From Candidatus Dadabacteria bacterium UBA1144 (GTDB lineage Bacteria; Desulfobacterota_D; UBA1144): a stretch of 36,233 nucleotides of DNA. Below the pieces are notes generated by a model that was not told where the DNA came from, did no database searches, and worked only from the letters and a program-made list of their open reading frames with translations. How positions within the stretch are numbered: the first letter of the stretch is position 1; each line of letters opens with the position of its first letter. The stretch covers positions 1 through 36,233 of the forward strand of contig CAJIYY010000022.1 of assembly GCA_905181755.1 (NCBI GenBank), read 5' to 3'. The translations under genes were made by a program, and so were the position numbers. Positions 1,933 through 31,252 of the stretch are shown piece by piece.

Positions 1933-3321
1933 CTTTTTTCCATCTACTTTGTTCGGGACTTGTAAATTCAAAAAATCTAAGATGGTTGGAAAAAGGTCTA
2001 CTGTTCTAATCTTATCCTCGGAGACCATTCTATTCATAATCAATGGAACATGCATATGATCACTCTTCAGAGATCCATGTGACGACTTATGTTGTGGAAA
2101 CTCGAAATTACTTCTTAAATCAAATCCTGTCTCAGCACTAATAATGATATCGCCACTACGGCCAGATTTAAAAATTTGAACTATTTGAGTTAAAGCATCT
2201 GGATAGGATGTTTCAAAAGTTTTTTCAAGAACATCATCATAGGAGAGAAAATCTTTAATCCCTTCATATCCAAAAGGATCGTTTACAAGAGGAGTGTAAA
2301 ACACTCCCGTTTCTTTATCTTCAAGAAGTGCAATACCTCTTTTACTTTTAATAACTATTTGATTTTTTGTATTTAAGGACATGACTATATCTATTGCTTC
2401 AGATGTAAGCAATTTATCTATCAGCCCATCTGAGTTTCTAGAAGTATGCTTCTTTGACCAATCTCCATCTTCTCTAAGGTATATATGAGACATGGAATTT
2501 CCTGAAACCATAACAGCGGCATCAATATCAGTTAAATACTTTTTATGAACTAAAGGATAGGAAAAGACCTTGTACCCACTCCTTTCGAGAAACCCTGTCA
2601 AATCTAAGTGTGAAGATGTATTAGAGTGTCCATGGTCGCTAGTAATTATTAAGAGCGTGTCCTCAAACTGTTTTGTATCCTTCAACTTCTTAACAACTAT
2701 GCCAAGTTTATCATCGAAGTTAACAAAGGAATCTACTACGCTTTGACTATTACAGCCTGAGATATGTGAGTTAGAGTCAACACCCAAATAACAACAGAAA
2801 ACGAATTGTGCACTTGATTCTATTGCATCTAAAAGTTTTTCTGATGCAACGTTATCTATCAGTTGCGACCCTAAAAAATGAGACTTAACTTTATAATAAA
2901 ATTTAGATATTTGTGTCATATCAAATTTTGAAGGTAAACCTCTTGTAATTTCATTAAATATTGACCTTGAATCATTTACAATTTCAAAGATTGTAGCTTG
3001 TGACTTCTTCAAGTCTCTATTAAAGAGAAGTCCTTCAATTCCAACATAGCTTCTATGGGAGTTTAGAGAGCTTCTATTCTTAGAAAACTTAACTTTATCA
3101 AACCATCTAATGCCGGGCATATTGCTATTTCCTGGAAAGGTACCCATCAGAAAAGGAATATAGGCTGGGCCAGTAGTAGAAGGAAAAACACTAACAGCAG
3201 TAGAGAATGATCCGTTTTGACTTATTAAACTTTTCATATTCGGCATCAAGCCATTTTCTATATGAGTCTCCAAAGAATCCTTCCGAGCACCATCCAAAAG
3301 AAGAAAAATAACTTTTTTCAT
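1918..3321 (-). CDS. Alkaline-phosphatase-superfamily enzyme (type I phosphodiesterase / nucleotide pyrophosphatase-like)
   Basis: Metal and nucleophile motifs are present: LLLDGARKDSL, FPSTTGPAY (Thr nucleophile region), ITSDHGH, HGSL. No signal peptide is visible. It lies co-directionally downstream of the bio genes. Confidence 0.75.
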   Translation of the reverse strand: MKKVIFLLLDGARKDSLETHIENGLMPNMKSLISQNGSFSTAVSVFPSTTGPAYIPFLMGTFPGNSNMPGIRWFDKVKFSKNRSSLNSHRSYVGIEGLLFNRDLKKSQATIFEIVNDSRSIFNEITRGLPSKFDMTQISKFYYKVKSHFLGSQLIDNVASEKLLDAIESSAQFVFCCYLGVDSNSHISGCNSQSVVDSFVNFDDKLGIVVKKLKDTKQFEDTLLIITSDHGHSNTSSHLDLTGFLERSGYKVFSYPLVHKKYLTDIDAAVMVSGNSMSHIYLREDGDWSKKHTSRNSDGLIDKLLTSEAIDIVMSLNTKNQIVIKSKRGIALLEDKETGVFYTPLVNDPFGYEGIKDFLSYDDVLEKTFETSYPDALTQIVQIFKSGRSGDIIISAETGFDLRSNFEFPQHKSSHGSLKSDHMHVPLIMNRMVSEDKIRTVDLFPTILDFLNLQVPNKVDGKKLDIN

Positions 3322-3333
3322 AATATTAAGAAA

Positions 3334-3645
3334 TTACCTCTTTTTCTCCCATTCTTCCTTAGATACAATGAAACCTTTACCGTCTCTATAAACCTCTTCA
3401 CCGTTAACCTTCTCAGAAACTTCATCGCTCCATCTCTCATTCTTTAACCATCGCTGAGGGTGAGGAACGAACCTCTCTTCACTTGTAGCCCTATATAGGC
3501 TATTAAATCTTGACGCTAGCTCCTGAACAGAAAGATTAGTCTTTATTTTCACAAATTCCATCCGAGCTTTCTTTTTATCAACTTTTCTGCCTAATAGCAG
3601 ACTCCAGAAAAGCTCAAATTCTTCTTCTTTTCTTCCCATAATCAC
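3334..3645 (-). CDS. Hypothetical 103-aa protein (conserved-looking F..FW....K.DKKKA ... HP.RWL.NERW.D pattern)
   Basis: This ORF fills the gap between bioF and the AlkP gene on the same strand. The pattern resembles a widespread uncharacterised small-protein family; I cannot name a function. Confidence 0.5.
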   Translation of the reverse strand: MIMGRKEEEFELFWSLLLGRKVDKKKARMEFVKIKTNLSVQELASRFNSLYRATSEERFVPHPQRWLKNERWSDEVSEKVNGEEVYRDGKGFIVSKEEWEKKR

Positions 3646-3695
3646 AATCTCTTAAAAGTTTACCTTCTCTTGTATGATTTACTATTTAATCTAGA

Positions 3696-4877
3696 TTAAT
3701 TAGAGAATTTTTCTAGTTTCTTCATTACTTTAATTAATTTATCAATATGCTTTTTCTTATGAGTAGACATAAATGTTAACCTAATTCTTGATTCTCCAAC
3801 TGGTACCGAAGGAGGTCTTACTGCAGGAATATAAATCTGATTCTCTAGTAAGAATTTAGAATACATAAGGGCTTTTCTTTCATCACCAACAATTATAGGA
3901 ACAATTGGTGTAGTAGATTTTAAGTAATTGTGGCTTGAACCTTCAAGGTAACTTTGGAAGTACTTAATATTATCATAGAGCTTCTCTCTCAAAATATTAT
4001 CTTTTCTAATTATAGATATAGCCTTTAGAGAAGCACTAAGTGCCGGGGCGGGAAGAGAAGTGTCGAATATGAAAGACCTGGCCTTGTTCTTTAAGAAATC
4101 AATCAAGTCTCTAGATCCTGCAACATATCCTCCGATTGAACCTACTGCCTTTGACAAAGTACCCATACAAATATCAATTTTATCTTGAACCTGAAACATT
4201 TCTGATGCACCACTACCAGTATCTCCTAAAACTCCAGTTGCATGTGCTTCGTCAATCATAGAAATGCAATCATACTCATCGCATAATTCAACAATCTTGT
4301 CCAATGGTGCAATGTCCCCATCCATACTAAAAACACTGTCGGTCAAAATCATCTTTTTTTCTTTATTAGATTTATATTTTTGAAGCTTTTTCTTCAAATC
4401 TACCATATCGGAGTGCTTATATATAACTATTTTACTTCCTGCTAACCTGGCACCATCAATTAGGCATGCATGGTTTAGCTCATCACTAAAGATTATATCT
4501 TTCTTACTCATTATAGAAGGAATAGTCCCTATGCTAGCTAGGTAACCTGAGCTGAAGACTATTGAATCTTCAGTTTTTTTAAAACTTGCAATTTCCTCTT
4601 CTAACTTACGATGCAAACTAGAAGTGCCCGTAACTAGCCTTGATCCTCCAGTCCCAACACCATACTTTGAAGCAGAACTAATAGAAGAATTAATTACTTT
4701 TGGATTCGTTGTTAATCCTAAGTAATTATTAGATGCAAACTGATAACAGCTTTTCTTATTTATAATAACTTCTGGGCTCATAGAAGATGATATTTCAACT
4801 AAAGTTCTGTGTAGATTAGATTCTTTAATCTTAGTGAGATTCTTTTTAACCCAGTAATCAAGACTATTAACTTTCAT
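3696..4877 (-). CDS. bioF: 8-amino-7-oxononanoate synthase
   Basis: The fold-type I PLP alpha-oxoamine synthase pattern is present: NNYLGL, DELNHACLIDG, DEAHATG, GTLSKAVGS (PLP lysine). It overlaps the bioA stop by 11 nt within the bio operon. Confidence 0.85.
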   Translation of the reverse strand: MKVNSLDYWVKKNLTKIKESNLHRTLVEISSSMSPEVIINKKSCYQFASNNYLGLTTNPKVINSSISSASKYGVGTGGSRLVTGTSSLHRKLEEEIASFKKTEDSIVFSSGYLASIGTIPSIMSKKDIIFSDELNHACLIDGARLAGSKIVIYKHSDMVDLKKKLQKYKSNKEKKMILTDSVFSMDGDIAPLDKIVELCDEYDCISMIDEAHATGVLGDTGSGASEMFQVQDKIDICMGTLSKAVGSIGGYVAGSRDLIDFLKNKARSFIFDTSLPAPALSASLKAISIIRKDNILREKLYDNIKYFQSYLEGSSHNYLKSTTPIVPIIVGDERKALMYSKFLLENQIYIPAVRPPSVPVGESRIRLTFMSTHKKKHIDKLIKVMKKLEKFSN

Positions 4878-9684: not shown

Positions 9685-9950
9685 TGAAAAAAAAAATTAG
9701 AATATCAAATAGACTGGGACTTCACGCTCGCGCTTCTTCAAAGCTTGTGAGATTAGCTAATAATTTTAAATCAGATGTGAATATTTCAAAAGGAGAGCTC
9801 GCAATTAATGCAAAAAGCATCCTGGGAATATTATCACTTGCAGCAAGTCTTGGTGTCGAAATAGAAATTGAAACAAAGGGTGACGATGAAGAGTTTGCTA
9901 TGAGAGAAGTAATTAGTTTATTTGATAGCAAGTTTGGTGAGGAATCATGA
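9684..9950 (+). CDS. ptsH: Phosphocarrier protein HPr (or NPr-like paralogue)
   Basis: NRLGLHARASSKLV carries the His-15 site, and INAKSILGILSL carries the Ser-46-like site. Length is 88 aa, with an ATGA overlap onto ptsI. Confidence 0.85.
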   Translation: MKKKIRISNRLGLHARASSKLVRLANNFKSDVNISKGELAINAKSILGILSLAASLGVEIEIETKGDDEEFAMREVISLFDSKFGEES

Positions 9951-20535: not shown

Positions 20536-20541
20536 TAGATT

Positions 20542-20763
20542 TTAATCTAGAGATGTATTAATTACTAACTTAATCTGGTTATCAAATTCCTCAAGCCCTT
20601 CAATGGGAACCACAATACTTGACCTGCCCCCACTTTGTTCTGTAATTCTCAAGTATTTACCCTTATGATTCTCCTTTATATCAAAGAAGAATCTTTTAGT
20701 TTGAATATCTACTTGAGAACTATACAAATCTTTTGACTGATTATCTTTTTCATTCGCCATCAA
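20542..20763 (-). CDS. Single PUR-repeat (Pur-alpha-like, DUF3276-type) nucleic-acid-binding protein
   Basis: SSQVDIQTKRFFFDIKENHKGKYLRITEQSGGRSSIVVP matches the PUR repeat pattern (I.nKrFy.D.K.N.kG.fl.I.E). Length is 73 aa. Confidence 0.65.
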   Translation of the reverse strand: MMANEKDNQSKDLYSSQVDIQTKRFFFDIKENHKGKYLRITEQSGGRSSIVVPIEGLEEFDNQIKLVINTSLD

Positions 20764-20770
20764 ATAATCA

Positions 20771-29179: not shown

Positions 29180-29185
29180 TAAAAA

Positions 29186-29204
29186 TTAATAATATCATAT
29201 TATT
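29186..29204. promoter_or_regulatory. Perfect 9-1-9 AT-rich inverted repeat in the trhO/cys divergent region (candidate operator or RNA hairpin)
   Basis: TAATAATAT-C-ATATTATTA. It lies 7 nt upstream of the trhO ATG and 15 nt upstream of the predicted cys -35. AT-only palindromes arise easily in AT-rich DNA. Confidence 0.25.
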
Positions 29205-29218
29205 ATTTTTTAAAAAAC

Positions 29219-29248
29219 TTGCTGTTATATTAAACATAGTGCTATAAT
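29219..29248 (+). promoter_or_regulatory. Putative sigma70-type promoter of the cys leader/operon
   Basis: TTGCTG (29219-29224), an 18-nt spacer, then TGc-TATAAT (extended -10; hexamer 29243-29248). Confidence 0.4.
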
Positions 29249-29362
29249 TTAATTGTCGTCATTTAACTCTACTTGCAACGACATAAAATAAATGCTAAAC
29301 AGGGTAAGGATGCTGCTCAGTGTCTTTCTCTTTGAGTTACAAATTAAATTGTGGAGTTTGTT

Positions 29363-29449
29363 ATGATTAATGTTCAAAATCTTTTATCTGTAACAGAGAT
29401 TATTTCTTGTTACTTTAAGCACTCAAACTCTTGTTGTTGTAACAAATAA
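29363..29449 (+). CDS. Candidate leader peptide (28 aa) rich in Cys codons: MINVQNLLSVTEIISCYFKHSNSCCCNK
   Basis: My own translation; the ORF is below the ORF-track size cutoff. GGAG (29353-29356) lies 6 nt upstream of the ATG. There are four Cys codons, three of them consecutive TGT (29432-29440), and tandem TAA TAA stops. It sits in the leader of the cysteine-biosynthetic sulfate-assimilation operon. Confidence 0.4.
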   Translation: MINVQNLLSVTEIISCYFKHSNSCCCNK

Positions 29450-29563
29450 TAAAATAAGTCTAATTTGATATTTCGAATTAACGACTTTACGAACCGGCGA
29501 AAAATTTCGTCCGATATATCAAATTGATATCACTTTTTAATATTAAAACCTTGGAGGGTTTAA

Positions 29564-31252
29564 ATGAAAGAAGTAAAATTAGTAAAAAATGAAGGAATAA
29601 AAGAATCAAGTGATGGGTTACGGGGAACTATCGAAAACGAGTTAATTGATGAAAGTACAATCAAATTTTCCTCTGATAACGAGCAGGTTCTTAAGTTTCA
29701 TGGGATTTACCAGCAAGATGATAGAGATAAAAGAAAATCGCTGCAGAAGGCTGGCCTAGAAAAAGACTATAGCTTTATGATTAGAACGAAGAACCCAGGT
29801 GGCGGGAATATAAGCCCAGAGCAATGGGTCATAATGGATGAAATTACAAATGAGTGGGCAAATCCAACATTAAGAATTACGACTAGAGAATGTTTTCAAT
29901 TTCATGGGATTGGCAAGAAAAATCTTAAGAAATTAGTAAACGCATTAAATGAGAATCTCATAACTTCCTATGGTGCCTGTGGAGATATAGTAAGGAATAC
30001 GGTGGCATCACCAATATCTGATATTAGAGAGGATCTAAGCTACGATGCTCAGTCCTTAGCAAGGGAGATTGACAAGGAGACCCTAGCTAAGTCAAGAGGC
30101 TACTACGAGATTTGGGTTGATGGAGAGAAGGTCCTAACTAAGAAGAATCAAGATAAAATTGAAGAAGACTCCTTATACAAGAAGGCCTATCTTCCTAGAA
30201 AATTTAAAATCGGCGTTGGTCACCAGCTCGATAATTCAATTGACATCTACACTCAAGATATAGGAATTCTTCCGATAGTAGATGGAGAACAAAAATACTT
30301 TAATATCTTAGTCGGTGGAGGTTTAGGAAGTCACCATAGACAGAAGCAAACTTTCCCTAGACTTGCTGATGAGCTAGGAATGTGTCAGGAAGATCAAGTA
30401 TTAGAGGTCGTGAGGGCCATAATAAGCATCCAAAGAGACCATGGTGTGAGGACTAACAGAAAACAAGCAAGAATGAAATATCTGTTAGAGGATTGGGGTG
30501 TAGAAAAGTTTAGGAGCGAACTAGAGCTTAGGCTAGGATTCAAGCTAGAAACATATATCAAAAAATCTCTTACTAAGTTGGATAATTACTACGGGTGGCA
30601 CAAGCAGAAACAAGAGGGGAAATTTTATTGCGGAATTTTTATTGAAAATGGTCGTATTAAGGATACAGACTCAGTAAAACTTAAGTCCGGGCTTAGGGAA
30701 ATAATTCATAAATATAAGGTTGAAACTAGATTAACTGCAACACAAGATTTGATCTTAGTAAATGTTAACAAAGATGATGTTCAAGGGATAAAAGACCTGT
30801 TAAAGAAGAATAGTATAGATACAAACGAAAAATACTCTAACTTAAGATTAGCTTCAATGGCCTGCCCTGCTTTGCCAACATGTAGTCTTGCAGTTGCAGA
30901 AGCCGAAAGATTCCTTCCTTCTTTGATTGACGAGCTTGACCTTAGGGGCCTCGGGGGTGAGAAAATTAAAATCAGAATGAGCGGGTGTCCGAATTCATGC
31001 TCAAGACCTCCTGTCTCTGAGATAGGACTTATAGGGGCAACAGCAAATAAATATAATATTTATTTGGGTGGGGATTTCTATGGCACAAGGCTAAACAAAC
31101 TATTTATGGAACTAGTTGATGATTTCGAACTTGCAGATAAAATTTCTAAGTTAATAAATTACTGGAAACAAAATAGAGAGACTACAGAAGAGCCTTTTGG
31201 AGATTTTTGCAATAAGAAAGATTTTGAAATATTAAGGAGTGTAGTGGAATAG
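29564..31252 (+). CDS. cysI: Assimilatory sulfite reductase hemoprotein (siroheme/[4Fe-4S] beta-component)
   Basis: The N-terminus E..K..S..LRGTI...L, FHGIYQQDDRD and the siroheme-FeS cysteines (ACPALPTC...; SGCPNSCSRP) are present. Strong SD GGAGG 6 nt upstream. Confidence 0.9.
   Translation: MKEVKLVKNEGIKESSDGLRGTIENELIDESTIKFSSDNEQVLKFHGIYQQDDRDKRKSLQKAGLEKDYSFMIRTKNPGGGNISPEQWVIMDEITNEWANPTLRITTRECFQFHGIGKKNLKKLVNALNENLITSYGACGDIVRNTVASPISDIREDLSYDAQSLAREIDKETLAKSRGYYEIWVDGEKVLTKKNQDKIEEDSLYKKAYLPRKFKIGVGHQLDNSIDIYTQDIGILPIVDGEQKYFNILVGGGLGSHHRQKQTFPRLADELGMCQEDQVLEVVRAIISIQRDHGVRTNRKQARMKYLLEDWGVEKFRSELELRLGFKLETYIKKSLTKLDNYYGWHKQKQEGKFYCGIFIENGRIKDTDSVKLKSGLREIIHKYKVETRLTATQDLILVNVNKDDVQGIKDLLKKNSIDTNEKYSNLRLASMACPALPTCSLAVAEAERFLPSLIDELDLRGLGGEKIKIRMSGCPNSCSRPPVSEIGLIGATANKYNIYLGGDFYGTRLNKLFMELVDDFELADKISKLINYWKQNRETTEEPFGDFCNKKDFEILRSVVE

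Follow-up and report, generated by a model that had tools for sequence, protein, structure and literature searches.

A probable SAM-II-class aptamer and a cysteine-rich leader ORF ahead of a sulfate-assimilation operon of a marine Candidatus Dadabacteria bacterium: a candidate two-input leader

The question raised by this locus is what the long leader of a sulfate-assimilation operon responds to. The window, a 36,233-nt contig of the marine Candidatus Dadabacteria UBA1144, includes a 384-nt cysI leader followed by genes for a CysI-like sulfite reductase, CysD, CysN, a PHO4/CysP-type permease, and an APS/PAPS reductase (CysH); the cysI product is an assimilatory sulfite reductase hemoprotein. 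A first-pass annotation, made from the sequence alone, proposed that a short ORF in the leader senses cysteine by trp/his/leu-type attenuation. All of the sequence elements it described were found where it had placed them; its statement that the leader (29180-29563) is the sole non-coding gap of more than 150 nt does not hold, since 9685-9946 and 20536-20770 are also ORF-free by a list of ORFs of at least 90 aa.

The promoter occupies 29219-29248 (all features described here are on the forward strand), with a -35 element TTGCTG (29219-24), an 18-nt spacer, and an extended -10 element TGcTATAAT (29240-48). Its earlier description as a good promoter stands as far as the elements and their positions go, and the hexamers are conserved, the -35 TTG and TATAAT being unchanged across seven orthologous leaders; against this, the -35 matches consensus at three of six positions, and a consensus scan made no call. 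An equivalent promoter lies upstream of every copy of the module described below. Transcription would be expected to start at about 29254-56, at the first base of the aptamer. The cysI ribosome-binding site, as read from the sequence (29553-29566), has GGAGG at 29553-57 and ATG at 29564-66.

Conservation of the leader ORF and its cysteine run

The leader ORF (uORF), MINVQNLLSVTEIISCYFKHSNSCCCNK, has 28 codons (29363-29449, or 29363-29452 with the whole of its tandem TAA-TAA stop at 29447-52). Its ribosome-binding site (29353-29365) is a GGAG Shine-Dalgarno sequence (SD, 29353-56), a 6-nt spacer, and the ATG at 29363-65. TGT codons are found at 29408-10 and 29432-40, and the C-terminus reads ...NSCCCNK ahead of the tandem stop. 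The long proteins of the window are Cys-poor, as the first-pass annotation had remarked: 26 long ORFs in it have 1.12% Cys in 9762 residues, and CCC is absent throughout.

Taken alone, the uORF would be no more than chance might supply: TGYTGYTGY occurs seven times in the window, counting any frame, and shuffling the uORF body leaves a 28-codon open frame about 11% of the time. Taken comparatively, it is more than that. Related marine contigs have 23 distinct versions, of 21-29 aa and 14-32% Cys, all open and all with an SD and a C-terminal Cys run; the N-terminus drifts, GGAG...ATG is invariant among orthologues, and a C-terminal motif N-[SL]-C-C-C-[NSG] is conserved. The last Cys is 2-4 codons before the stop in all 23, and a CCC run is at this distance in 22, the exception (L062) having CC. 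In L006, an 18-nt in-frame deletion keeps the frame, the pre-run codons are replaced, and the run is lengthened to CCCCC. Synonymous TGT/TGC changes are present among the related loci, and no amino-acid replacements were seen within the terminal Cys run. Some of the synonymous changes are outside helix a (described below): at Cys codon 1 in L001-L003, and in the first Cys run in L013, L027, L049, L008, and L004 compared to L037.

The check that had been suggested, on whether related cysI upstream regions conserve a short ORF with a Cys run, came out positive, and the suspicion that the uORF might be fortuitous is contradicted by the retention of SD, frame, and Cys run in 23 of 23 versions. On these comparative grounds it is to be regarded as a real, conserved leader ORF rich in Cys codons, upstream of sulfur-acquisition genes. 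Another ORF (29292-29366), whose stop overlaps the uORF ATG as ATGA, was dropped as not conserved in relatives. The codon following the Cys run is only ever AAC, AGC, or GGC, with G-U keeping the pairing to UU. The UGUUGUUGUAAC segment is also under constraint at the RNA level, and part of the "Cys" conservation could be structural.

The uORF is one of two settings in which the same module is found. A metagenome scan by aptamer core yielded 55 loci, in which the module is followed by a Cys-rich uORF or else, with equal spacing, by a ThrC-like ORF. Where it includes the uORF, the module stands before one of three gene sets: the cys operon, a rhodanese-NifU operon, or an SBP56 gene. In paralogous loci that have no uORF it is directly on the start of a ThrC-like/ThiS-like (ThiS/MoaD-like) gene pair. 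Each of the three gene sets that follow the uORF functions in sulfur acquisition, while the methionine-branch ThrC-like gene has no uORF. Rhodanese-type leaders have the whole UGUUGUUGUAAC string twice. A possible internal promoter, TTGTAA-N17-TATAAA, was noted in the rhodanese-type leaders only.

A probable SAM-II-class aptamer and its expression platform

Positions 29255-29304 match Rfam RF00521 over the full model length and are probably a SAM-II-class aptamer, with a predicted H-type pseudoknot fold. The first-pass annotation had overlooked it. The score against RF00521 (SAM_alpha) is 32.9 bits (E = 1e-5 locally, 7e-4 window-wide), just below the gathering score of 36, and that against RF01726 (SAM-II) is 29.5 bits, with a gathering score of 44. 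Among 12 related loci, 11 gave full-length RF00521 matches at 25.9-35.6 bits, all likewise under the gathering score of 36, and L023 is absent from the matches at E ≤ 0.1. A match to a known cis-regulatory RNA family had been named as grounds for giving up the leader-ORF proposal. The first 50 nt do match one, but the uORF is not displaced by it: with about 50 nt between the end of the aptamer and the uORF SD, the aptamer is an addition to the uORF and not a substitute for it.

Within the aptamer, P1 pairs GUCGU (29255-59) with ACGAC (29278-82), L1 is CAUUUAAC, P2a pairs CUCU (29267-70) with AGGG (29301-04), and P2b pairs UUGC (29273-76) with GC-U-AA (29294-98). The P2a/P2b assignment is a predicted one, from the Rfam alignment and general knowledge of SAM-II architecture. 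A first assignment, pairing loop AUUUAAC with tail GCUAAA, was abandoned; P2b as UUGC:GC-AA with P2a as CUCU:AGGG fits the Rfam alignment and the H-type topology. A UGCU:AGCA mini-hairpin considered against the pseudoknot was also set aside, as it is not conserved in the uORF-less loci. A relaxed regular expression found no further diverged aptamers in 567 kb of related loci.

The resemblance to SAM-II extends to the order of elements, to the sequence blocks AUUU.AC, CUUGCA, AAA.AA, GCUAAA, and AGG, to compatibility with an H-type pseudoknot, and to location in the 5' leaders of methionine, SAM, and sulfur genes. The SD strand GAGG of Sinorhizobium meliloti metA (PMC9373788) aligns with AGGG/AGAG/GGAG here. 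Unlike SAM-II, the present aptamers score just below gathering and have a shorter loop; the strand equivalent to the SD is not an SD, and appears instead to relay between pseudoknot and the hairpin P3; and the regulated start is about 50 nt further on, in many loci that of a leader ORF. The leader is predicted, from this sequence comparison, to bind SAM.

P3 (29301-29331) has a lower stem of AGGG (29301-04) with CUCU (29328-31) and an upper stem of 29306-14 with 29319-27, with a minimum free energy of -10.3 kcal/mol. Ninety-seven percent of alignment cells are paired, seven pairs are changed on both sides (39 compensatory cells), and this covariation was equalled in none of 500 shuffles. Since the same AGGG strand serves both P2a and lower P3, it is a candidate switch point; it can pair with the two CUCU strands in 99% and 96% of cells. 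P3 runs into an expression platform, UUUCUCUUU-GAGUUAC (CCUCUU-GAGUUAC, 29325-29340), in which CUCU (29328-31) is the anti-SD and GAGUUAC occupies 29334-40. The platform is conserved in 28 of 28 aligned leaders from three gene contexts, and P1, P2a, and P2b, which can pair in 99-100% of cells in 28 sequences, are nearly invariant and so without covariation; this near-invariance of pseudoknot, anti-SD, and GAGUUAC comes partly from the search pattern, which fixed the aptamer core.

A relay can be proposed from this arrangement. With a SAM-II-class pseudoknot at the transcription start, AGGG would pair either within the pseudoknot or with the CUCU of P3; SAM binding would capture AGGG, releasing the anti-SD CUCU and GAGUUAC, which would then close the translation start just downstream. 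The riboswitch would be an OFF switch, like other SAM-II riboswitches. The anti-SD can pair with the SD that follows it in 94% of cells. At the uORF-less loci, the partner of GAGUUAC lies in codons 2-6 of the regulated ORF, the pairing having -10.3 kcal/mol (p ≤ 0.01) in one clade and -7.2 kcal/mol in a second, and at the base 5' of GAG the pair has gone from C:G to U:A, a compensatory change. From GAGTTAC to ATG is 28-31 nt for the uORF and 26-30 nt, with one at 35, for the ThrC-like start of the uORF-less loci; anti-SD pairing energies range from -3.2 to -5.8 for the former and from -2.7 to -6.3 for the latter. The uORF start is positionally equivalent to the ThrC-like start. Thermodynamic folding of 55 leaders did not reproduce the proposed relay: a SAM-bound mimic gave no drop in uORF SD accessibility, and with the aptamer masked the uORF SD was more accessible, not less, in 30 of the 55.

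Pairing of the Cys-run segment and possible paths to cysI

The candidate helices of the leader, apart from those above, are L1:GAGUUAC, GAGUUACAA:UUGUAAC, uORF SD:pre-Cys segment, and CCUCU:main RBS. Two involve the end of the uORF. The 3' strand of helix b is CAAACUCU (29423-29430), the codons just 5' of the Cys run, which pair with GGAGUUUG (29353-60) at the uORF SD. RNAduplex puts it between -6.5 and -12.2 kcal/mol for all but one (L012, -4.4) of 17 unique SD/pre-Cys combinations; it appears in the predicted minimum free energy structure of most leaders, and it is rebuilt with other sequences in L003, in L010/L018 (AGUUUAAUA:UAUUAAACU), and in L006 (GGGAG:CUCCU). Helix a has UUGUAAC (29437-29443) as its 3' strand, comprising the end of Cys codon 2, Cys codon 3, and the Asn codon, paired with GUUACAA (29336-42). 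Five of the six uORF leaders tested give -7.3 to -10.5 kcal/mol for it, and L001 gives -3.3. It is a predicted helix, with strands that appear nearly invariant on alignment.

When the SAM-bound state is mimicked, 14 of 18 leaders show pairing between the anti-SD so released and the main RBS, and these main RBSs rank in the top 3-12% of 200 ORF starts by anti-SD complementarity; in the window's own clade the pairing is weak (-4.6 kcal/mol, probability 0.05). Outside that clade it could reflect merely strong SDs. In 17 of 19 unique leaders the duplex of Cys tract and main RBS does not outscore shuffles, and the L004/L037 clade has an 11-bp match at p = 0.07. Both whole leaders and 3' halves were folded at 15 and 37°C with a ribosome footprint masked at one of four sites (the first, second, or last Cys codon, or the stop), and accessibility of the main SD/AUG showed no consistent change; such masking, at the Cys codons and at the stop, had been proposed in the first-pass annotation. 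Pairing of the aptamer loop to the cysI or rhodanese SD/AUG (RNAalifold, RNAfold) was judged a composition effect because it is unconserved among cysI-type leaders. By eye, neither an ermC-like region 2/3 pairing downstream of the uORF nor any AU-rich motif common to both leader types held up.

The spacer between the uORF and cysI is filled by a long, imperfect stem-loop D (29457-29530; -17.5 kcal/mol). Its core is an inverted repeat, 29462-71 with 29516-25, a perfect 10 bp, to which 29473-75 with 29512-14 is added. MAFFT with RNAalifold gave no consensus for cysI-type spacers, whose arms are not alignable, and per-sequence duplex tests were substituted: the arm-arm duplex beats shuffles in seven of 11 orthologous leaders (p ≤ 0.024), with clade-specific arm sequences. 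In rhodanese-type leaders an analogous hairpin abuts the SD and has GC to AU covariation at two pairs.

A proposed composite sensor and its alternatives

The best explanation, which we hold with moderate confidence, is a composite leader in which the sulfur operon responds to two inputs, SAM and Cys-tRNA. The start gated by the riboswitch would here be that of the 28-codon leader ORF, not of an enzyme gene. If Cys-tRNA were scarce, ribosomes would linger at the Cys run, with two codons left before the stop. The segment concerned would also supply the 3' strand both of the helix with the uORF SD and of that with GAGUUAC; with a ribosome stalled there the leader would stay open, and expression of sulfite reductase, CysDN, permease, and CysH would rise. 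The module, with the uORF or lacking it, would serve a small sulfur regulon. The output we favor is translation of cysI by way of long-range RNA remodelling, since in most relatives the anti-SD, once freed, has strong complementarity to the main RBS; a Rho-type or mRNA-stability output would be the next choice. A stronger version can be entertained only tentatively: that the leader is a shared-strand logic device ("SAM low OR Cys-tRNA low"), a portable module, used with or without the uORF, that in a streamlined marine lineage would stand in for protein regulators as its sulfur regulon. In such a device GAGUUAC would pair with either aptamer L1 (UAACUC) or the end of the Cys run (UUGUAAC), and a stalled ribosome would feed back on aptamer folding and SAM binding and, via CCUCU, on the cysI RBS.

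The attenuation first proposed would have a ribosome at the stop block 29462-71, leaving hairpin 29513-31 and U5 to terminate transcription, with read-through upon a Cys stall. Its leader ORF, with Cys codons clustered near the stop, stands, the elements are in the right order within the window, the 3' arm is able to enter the long helix or, alternatively, the small hairpin, and a long helix soon after the stop is conserved. The terminator/antiterminator half fares badly. The candidate terminator (29513-29538), short and AT-rich, with GATAT (29513-17) pairing with ATATC (29527-31) and then T5 (29534-38), has -2.1 kcal/mol against the -17.5 kcal/mol of the long stem-loop; hairpin and U-run are restricted to the window's clade and missing in all others (the rhodanese-type hairpin is without a U-run), and even there a close relative, L033, has an uncompensated change. 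The stop is anywhere from 3 to 14 nt from the stem-loop's 5' arm among relatives, a terminator scan of the leader made no call, and over the window as a whole terminator-like sites are about as frequent as chance predicts. The hairpin is probably not functional as a terminator, classical intrinsic termination is an unlikely output, and the trp-type scheme as a whole is highly unlikely. The likeness to trp/his/leu attenuators is in the leader ORF, the cognate codons clustered near its end, and the position before a biosynthetic operon; the differences are the want of a conserved terminator/antiterminator and the pairing of the regulatory codons with upstream partners (uORF SD and platform), not with a downstream region 2.

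The remaining alternatives keep the uORF and change what it does. It might be a conduit that only relays the SAM decision, by reinitiation or unfolding, with no Cys sensing, UUGUUGUUGUAAC being kept as the strand that pairs with GUUACAA and its neighbours. The pairing of the last Cys codon and the next with GAGUUAC would suit this, as would the restriction of the post-run codon to purine-purine-C despite Asn/Ser/Gly changes, the doubling of UGUUGUUGUAAC in rhodanese-type leaders, and the precedent of M. tuberculosis ppe2, whose riboswitch-gated uORF is needed for downstream expression without sensing an amino acid (PMC11260477). On the other hand, Cys is kept through synonymous TGT/TGC changes outside helix a, L006 has swapped its pre-run codons while extending the run to CCCCC, the uORF occurs only before sulfur-acquiring gene sets and not before the methionine-branch ThrC-like gene, and near-stop Cys runs are a proven sensor in mycobacteria (10.1101/834739); we think a mere conduit unlikely, if worth keeping in mind. 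If the uORF does sense Cys, the stalled ribosome might, in tna-like fashion, mask a Rho or RNase site by the stop, with no RNA switch. Since every version has its Cys run 2-4 codons from the stop, a stalled ribosome would cover the stop and some 5-10 nt past it; folding gave no consistent structural switch, and the same was proposed by Seliverstov et al. for terminator-less actinobacterial cys leaders (PMC1262725). The spacer, however, is not obviously C-rich or G-poor (one rhodanese-type leader, by eye) and is mostly in a stable stem-loop, a composition and folding that make it a poor Rho loading site, and this reading is distinctly improbable. Least probable of all is a functional Cys-rich micropeptide, thiol- or metal-binding or persulfide-carrying, co-expressed with the sulfur enzymes and not regulatory: it would account for the conserved C-terminal motif and good SD, but the N-terminal two thirds are unconserved, with the composition of AT-rich codons, length varies from 21 to 29 aa, the ORF is exactly where the platform expects a regulated start, three unrelated gene sets lie downstream, and nucleotide conservation is strongest in the segments that pair with other parts of the leader.

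The two-input reading can be set beside several known systems. Cys leader peptides were described as rare in the first-pass annotation, but are less so than that implies: they were predicted in 2005 for cys/cbs operons of Actinobacteria (PMC1262725), demonstrated in mycobacteria in 2020 (Canestrari et al., 10.1101/834739), and predicted again in 2021 as the uORFC-8-2 motif upstream of cysS in Rhodobacterales (PMC8632094). Like the predicted examples (PMC1262725, PMC8632094), the present ones are tandem-Cys short ORFs before cysteine-related genes, found by comparative genomics; uORFC-8-2 differs in having a clear terminator and U-run, the actinobacterial cases have no riboswitch, and for neither is there a report from this lineage or of fusion to a SAM aptamer. 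The mycobacterial sORFs likewise have a 3'-end Cys run upstream of sulfur or cysteine genes (in their case including a thiosulfate sulfurtransferase), lack an intrinsic terminator, and are a device common to several loci, there a regulon by ribosome stalling; in this polycysteine sORF system (Ms5788A/Rv0815A) the non-start mutant is locked off (10.1101/834739). They are leaderless, though, whereas here the probable transcription start (about 29255) is 108 nt before the ATG and the uORF has a GGAG SD; their Cys tract pairs with the downstream SD, while here that pairing is not significant and it is the pre-run segment that pairs, with the uORF SD; and here a riboswitch precedes the uORF, in an unrelated, AT-rich lineage. 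Another comparison is with ppe2, where a B12 riboswitch gates uORF translation and the downstream gene depends on it (Kipkorir et al. 2024, PMC11260477). In both a riboswitch stands before a short uORF, the gating here being proposed; the ppe2 uORF has no run of regulatory codons, and it works by termination-reinitiation at overlapping or adjacent codons, in place of which there is here a structured spacer of 114 nt from stop to cysI.

No report of a SAM riboswitch and a Cys leader peptide in one leader was found in the literature. The Salmonella mgtA leader combines a Mg2+ riboswitch with a proline-codon uORF, mgtL, its output being Rho-dependent termination. It too couples a ligand-sensing RNA to a short ORF whose translation speed reports amino-acid supply; ligand and amino acid are others, and the present system differs in having both inputs on the sulfur pathway and a module reused with and without the uORF. 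To our knowledge, riboswitches and leader-peptide attenuators are usually treated as alternatives, with few documented leaders combining ligand-sensing RNA and an amino-acid uORF, mgtA the main one. Each part of the Dadabacteria leader is known in kind; what is probably added is one RNA that reads both SAM and cysteine supply.

If so, both inputs would report on one pathway, cysteine marking the entry and SAM the end of it, and the occurrence of the cassette with and without the uORF before different sulfur genes provides a natural construct set for dissecting how the sensors are wired together. Rfam-type searches would gain a SAM-II variant missed by current thresholds. The rhodanese, SBP56, and ThrC-like/ThiS-like genes of these genomes could be assigned to a predicted SAM- and sulfur-responsive regulon, and Cys-codon attenuation would extend beyond the Actinobacteria and Rhodobacterales to a marine group that is abundant and uncultured and has streamlined genomes.

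The cysI leader and its probable aptamer

The leader of the cysI-cysD-cysN-permease-cysH operon contains a promoter-like TTGCTG-N18-TGcTATAAT (29219-29248); a GGAG Shine-Dalgarno (SD) sequence with a 6-nt gap to an ATG at 29363; a 28-codon upstream ORF (uORF; 29363-29449), MINVQNLLSVTEIISCYFKHSNSCCCNK, with TGT codons at 29432-29440 and a tandem TAA-TAA stop; a perfect 10 bp inverted repeat (29462-29471 with 29516-29525); a small hairpin plus U5 (29513-29538); and, 3' of this, the cysI SD and ATG. All are located as the first-pass annotation described. Pfam and NCBIfam identify the operon's products as an assimilatory sulfite reductase hemoprotein, CysD, CysN, a PHO4/CysP-type permease, and an APS/PAPS reductase; upstream of the leader, a divergent gene encodes a TrhO-type rhodanese protein. 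Between this gene and the cys promoter is an inverted repeat, AATAATAT-C-ATATTATT (29187-29205), whose core AATATCATAT is kept in all six orthologous leaders, and which could be a divergent promoter or operator.

The first-pass annotation had proposed an Rfam scan to exclude a riboswitch, and had overlooked a probable one. A permissive scan of the leader yields a full-length match to RF00521 (SAM-II family) at 29245-29319, with RF01726 as the second match. At 32.9 bits (E=1e-5; gathering score 36) the element is just under the Rfam threshold for SAM-II, and it is absent from the default scan at that threshold; among whole-window Rfam matches it ranks next after tRNA. RF00521 was also matched in 11 of 12 related loci searched (25.9-35.6 bits; L023 is missing from the list at E<=0.1). 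Since the match begins a few bases past the -10 box, the aptamer (predicted pseudoknot, 29255-29304) is probably the first part of the transcript. A 24-codon ORF (29292-29366) begins in the aptamer tail and ends on the uORF start codon, TGA and ATG overlapping as ATGA, but its own ATG is unconserved in relatives and it is probably fortuitous.

Related leaders and the uORF as a coding unit

Eight genome loci were recovered with the sulfite reductase as query, all in marine MAGs whose labels, Thermodesulfobacteriota or “Deltaproteobacteria TMED58,” correspond to the streamlined marine Dadabacteria. The whole leader, including promoter, aptamer, and GGAG-ATG, is kept in six of the eight. In these six, the hairpin after the aptamer is changed in sequence yet intact in pairing; the platform strand TTTCCTCTT-GAGTTAC is invariant; the short ORF ends in ...NSCCC[NSG] (APCCCCCN in locus L006); and an inverted repeat, with arms of different sequence, lies past its stop. 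The upstream regions of the two more distant loci, L005 and L007 (sulfite reductases at 70-71% identity), are unrelated, without riboswitch or uORF. They carry direct repeats 5' of the sulfite reductase gene (e.g., ACTTTTTAGAAACCCGTT, ACTTTCCAGAAACCCGTT; about 2880-2990 in L005, about 2890-2990 in L007), possibly sites for a protein regulator.

A metagenome scan with the aptamer core added 55 loci, and the cassette of promoter, aptamer, hairpin (P3), and platform is found in three contexts. In the first, it lies before the sulfite reductase operon with a Cys-rich uORF in between; in the second, a homologous uORF, again Cys-rich and often carrying two CCC runs (e.g., MVKIISVLHACLADTCCCNFTNSCCCNYK), leads into a two-domain rhodanese plus NifU-like gene or an SBP56 gene; in the third there is no uORF, and a thrC-family PLP enzyme gene starts at the GGAG-ATG past the platform, with a ThiS/MoaD-like protein with a GG end as second gene. 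The distance from GAGTTAC to the start codon is 28-31 nt in the first two and 26-30 nt (one at 35) in the third. Copies placed directly on the thrC-family gene are found in L014 (about 2920-4460), L022, and 18 other loci; the enzyme has an N-terminal Cys-rich zinc-ribbon-like segment, and its partner is ThiS/MoaD/SAMP1-like. SAM control and a sulfur-carrier partner suggest homocysteine rather than threonine synthesis; the pair resembles the MetM/MetO homocysteine route, where control by SAM would make sense. One 138-kb contig, Ga0209630_10000050 (L010, L035), has two copies of the cassette, one with a uORF (SBP56) and one lacking it (ThrC-like); one genome therefore uses both forms. In the rhodanese-NifU operons of L009 and L012, a third ORF after the rhodanese encodes a conserved 450-457-aa protein that neither Pfam nor NCBIfam matches and that is a candidate for a new protein of sulfur metabolism. 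Unrelated sequence follows the aptamer and platform in L055, and in L044 it follows the ThrC-like ORF's first ~40 codons; these metagenome contigs are probably assembly chimeras or rearrangements.

Judged from its sequence, the uORF alone is statistically unremarkable: TGYTGYTGY occurs seven times in the window, and the uORF body, when shuffled, stays open for 28 codons in about 11% of cases. The case for it rests on comparison with related sequences. There are 23 distinct uORF peptides of 21-29 residues, with 14-32% Cys; Cys makes up 1.12% of the 9762 residues of the window's long ORFs, among which CCC does not occur. All 23 have the last Cys 2-4 codons from the stop. Sequence in the N-terminal two thirds diverges freely among clades, and L006 has an 18-nt deletion that preserves frame. 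TGT/TGC swaps that keep Cys affect the terminal run at its first codon (L001-L003) and also the upstream run (L013, L027, L049, L008, and L004 versus L037); no lineage has a residue replaced in the terminal run, and one codon is lost in L062. All three gene sets behind a uORF bring sulfur into the cell's reduced pool, while the methionine-branch gene has none. This conservation and distribution form the pattern that would be expected of a cysteine-sensing leader peptide.

Predicted pairing between aptamer, platform, and uORF

In an alignment of 28 riboswitch-to-ATG segments, P3 (29301-29331) has seven pairs changed on both sides, with 39 compensatory cells, a level reached by none of 500 shuffles. 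Its first strand (29301-29304; AGGG, AGAG, or GGAG) is pairable with the aptamer-loop CUCU (P2a) in 99% of cells, and also with CUCU at the base of P3 (29328-29331) in 96%; the latter is pairable with the next SD in 94%. The strand aligned with AGGG in S. meliloti metA is an SD hidden by the pseudoknot (PMC9373788). These alternative pairings and the metA equivalence suggest a relay, in which SAM would capture AGGG in the pseudoknot, CUCU would thereby be released, and the following SD would be closed. Because the strands are invariant, such a relay is compatible with the data, not demonstrated by them; simple folding of the leaders did not reproduce it.

The partner of the platform's GAGUUAC (29334-29340) depends on context. 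At uORF-less loci it is just inside the regulated ORF: in one clade, UGUAACUUG at ATG+7 is the partner of CGAGUUACA (-10.3 kcal/mol, p<=0.01), and in another clade UGAGUUA pairs with UAACUCA at ATG+4 (-7.2), with a C:G to U:A switch between the two at the base 5' of GAG. At uORF loci it is UUGUAAC(U), made up of the final Cys codon and the one after it (-7.3 to -10.5 in five of six leaders tested; weak, -3.3, in L001). GAGUUA can also pair with UAACUC in the aptamer loop (-6.2), a pairing that a change of the element to GGGUUAAAAAA lengthens to 10 bp in the L001 clade. The uORF's own SD pairs with the codons directly 5' of the Cys run (-6.5 to -12.2 in 16 of 17 unique combinations; -4.4 in L012), a pairing that is re-formed from other sequences in L003, L010/L018, and L006. 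The Cys run is thus placed within a structure enclosing the uORF, which a ribosome dwelling on the run would hold open.

Possible routes to cysI, and known systems

The first-pass annotation proposed a trp-type terminator at 29513-29538. The hairpin and U5 are present, but the hairpin is predicted at only -2.1 kcal/mol, is missing (as is U5) outside the window's clade, has an uncompensated change in L033, and is not called by a terminator scan. Terminator-like consensus sites in the window (1-36,233) are about as frequent as chance predicts (12 found for 9.2 expected, and 12 for 9.8), most inside ORFs, and canonical intrinsic terminators seem rare in this compact, 33% GC genome. A long, imperfect stem-loop (-17.5 kcal/mol) fills the spacer, with the proposed inverted repeat as its core; it begins 3-14 nt past the stop and ends 22-35 nt before the main ATG, its arms differ among clades, and the duplex is better than shuffles in 7 of 11 leaders. 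Rhodanese-type leaders have one hairpin across the stop codon and a second, with two covarying pairs, adjoining the SD.

The likeliest form of a regulatory link between uORF and cysI is long-range translational remodelling, followed by a mechanism based on Rho or decay and, much less likely, by intrinsic termination. Masking ribosome footprints in leader folds, a check the first-pass annotation had suggested, gave no consistent change in main SD accessibility, and pairing of the Cys tract with the downstream SD, the mycobacterial mechanism, is in general unsupported across the leaders. With the aptamer and tail masked, the freed CCUCU pairs with the main ribosome-binding site in 14 of 18 leaders, and these sites are in the top 3-12% of 200 ORF starts by complementarity to CCUCU. 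The pairing does not hold in the clade of the window itself (-4.6 kcal/mol), and the complementarity could be a mere effect of strong SDs.

The mgtA leader joins a riboswitch and an amino-acid-sensing uORF. Riboswitch-gated uORFs are already known (PMC11260477), and Cys-codon leader ORFs have been predicted without terminators in Actinobacteria (PMC1262725), predicted with a terminator 5' of cysS in Rhodobacterales (PMC8632094), and demonstrated to be translational attenuators in mycobacteria (10.1101/834739). In the literature searched, no paper describes a SAM riboswitch joined to a Cys leader peptide, or riboswitches in this lineage. A classical attenuator is defined by its terminator, which the window's leader lacks; the mycobacterial type is leaderless and its Cys tract pairs with the SD, neither of which is supported for this uORF. 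Of the earlier interpretation, then, the Cys leader peptide stands and the trp-type terminator falls, while a probable riboswitch is to be added: the leader is best filed as joining two known kinds, a probable SAM-II-type riboswitch and a Cys-codon leader ORF. With one riboswitch occurring both with and without a uORF, this modular natural series offers a direct way to test how two sulfur signals are integrated.
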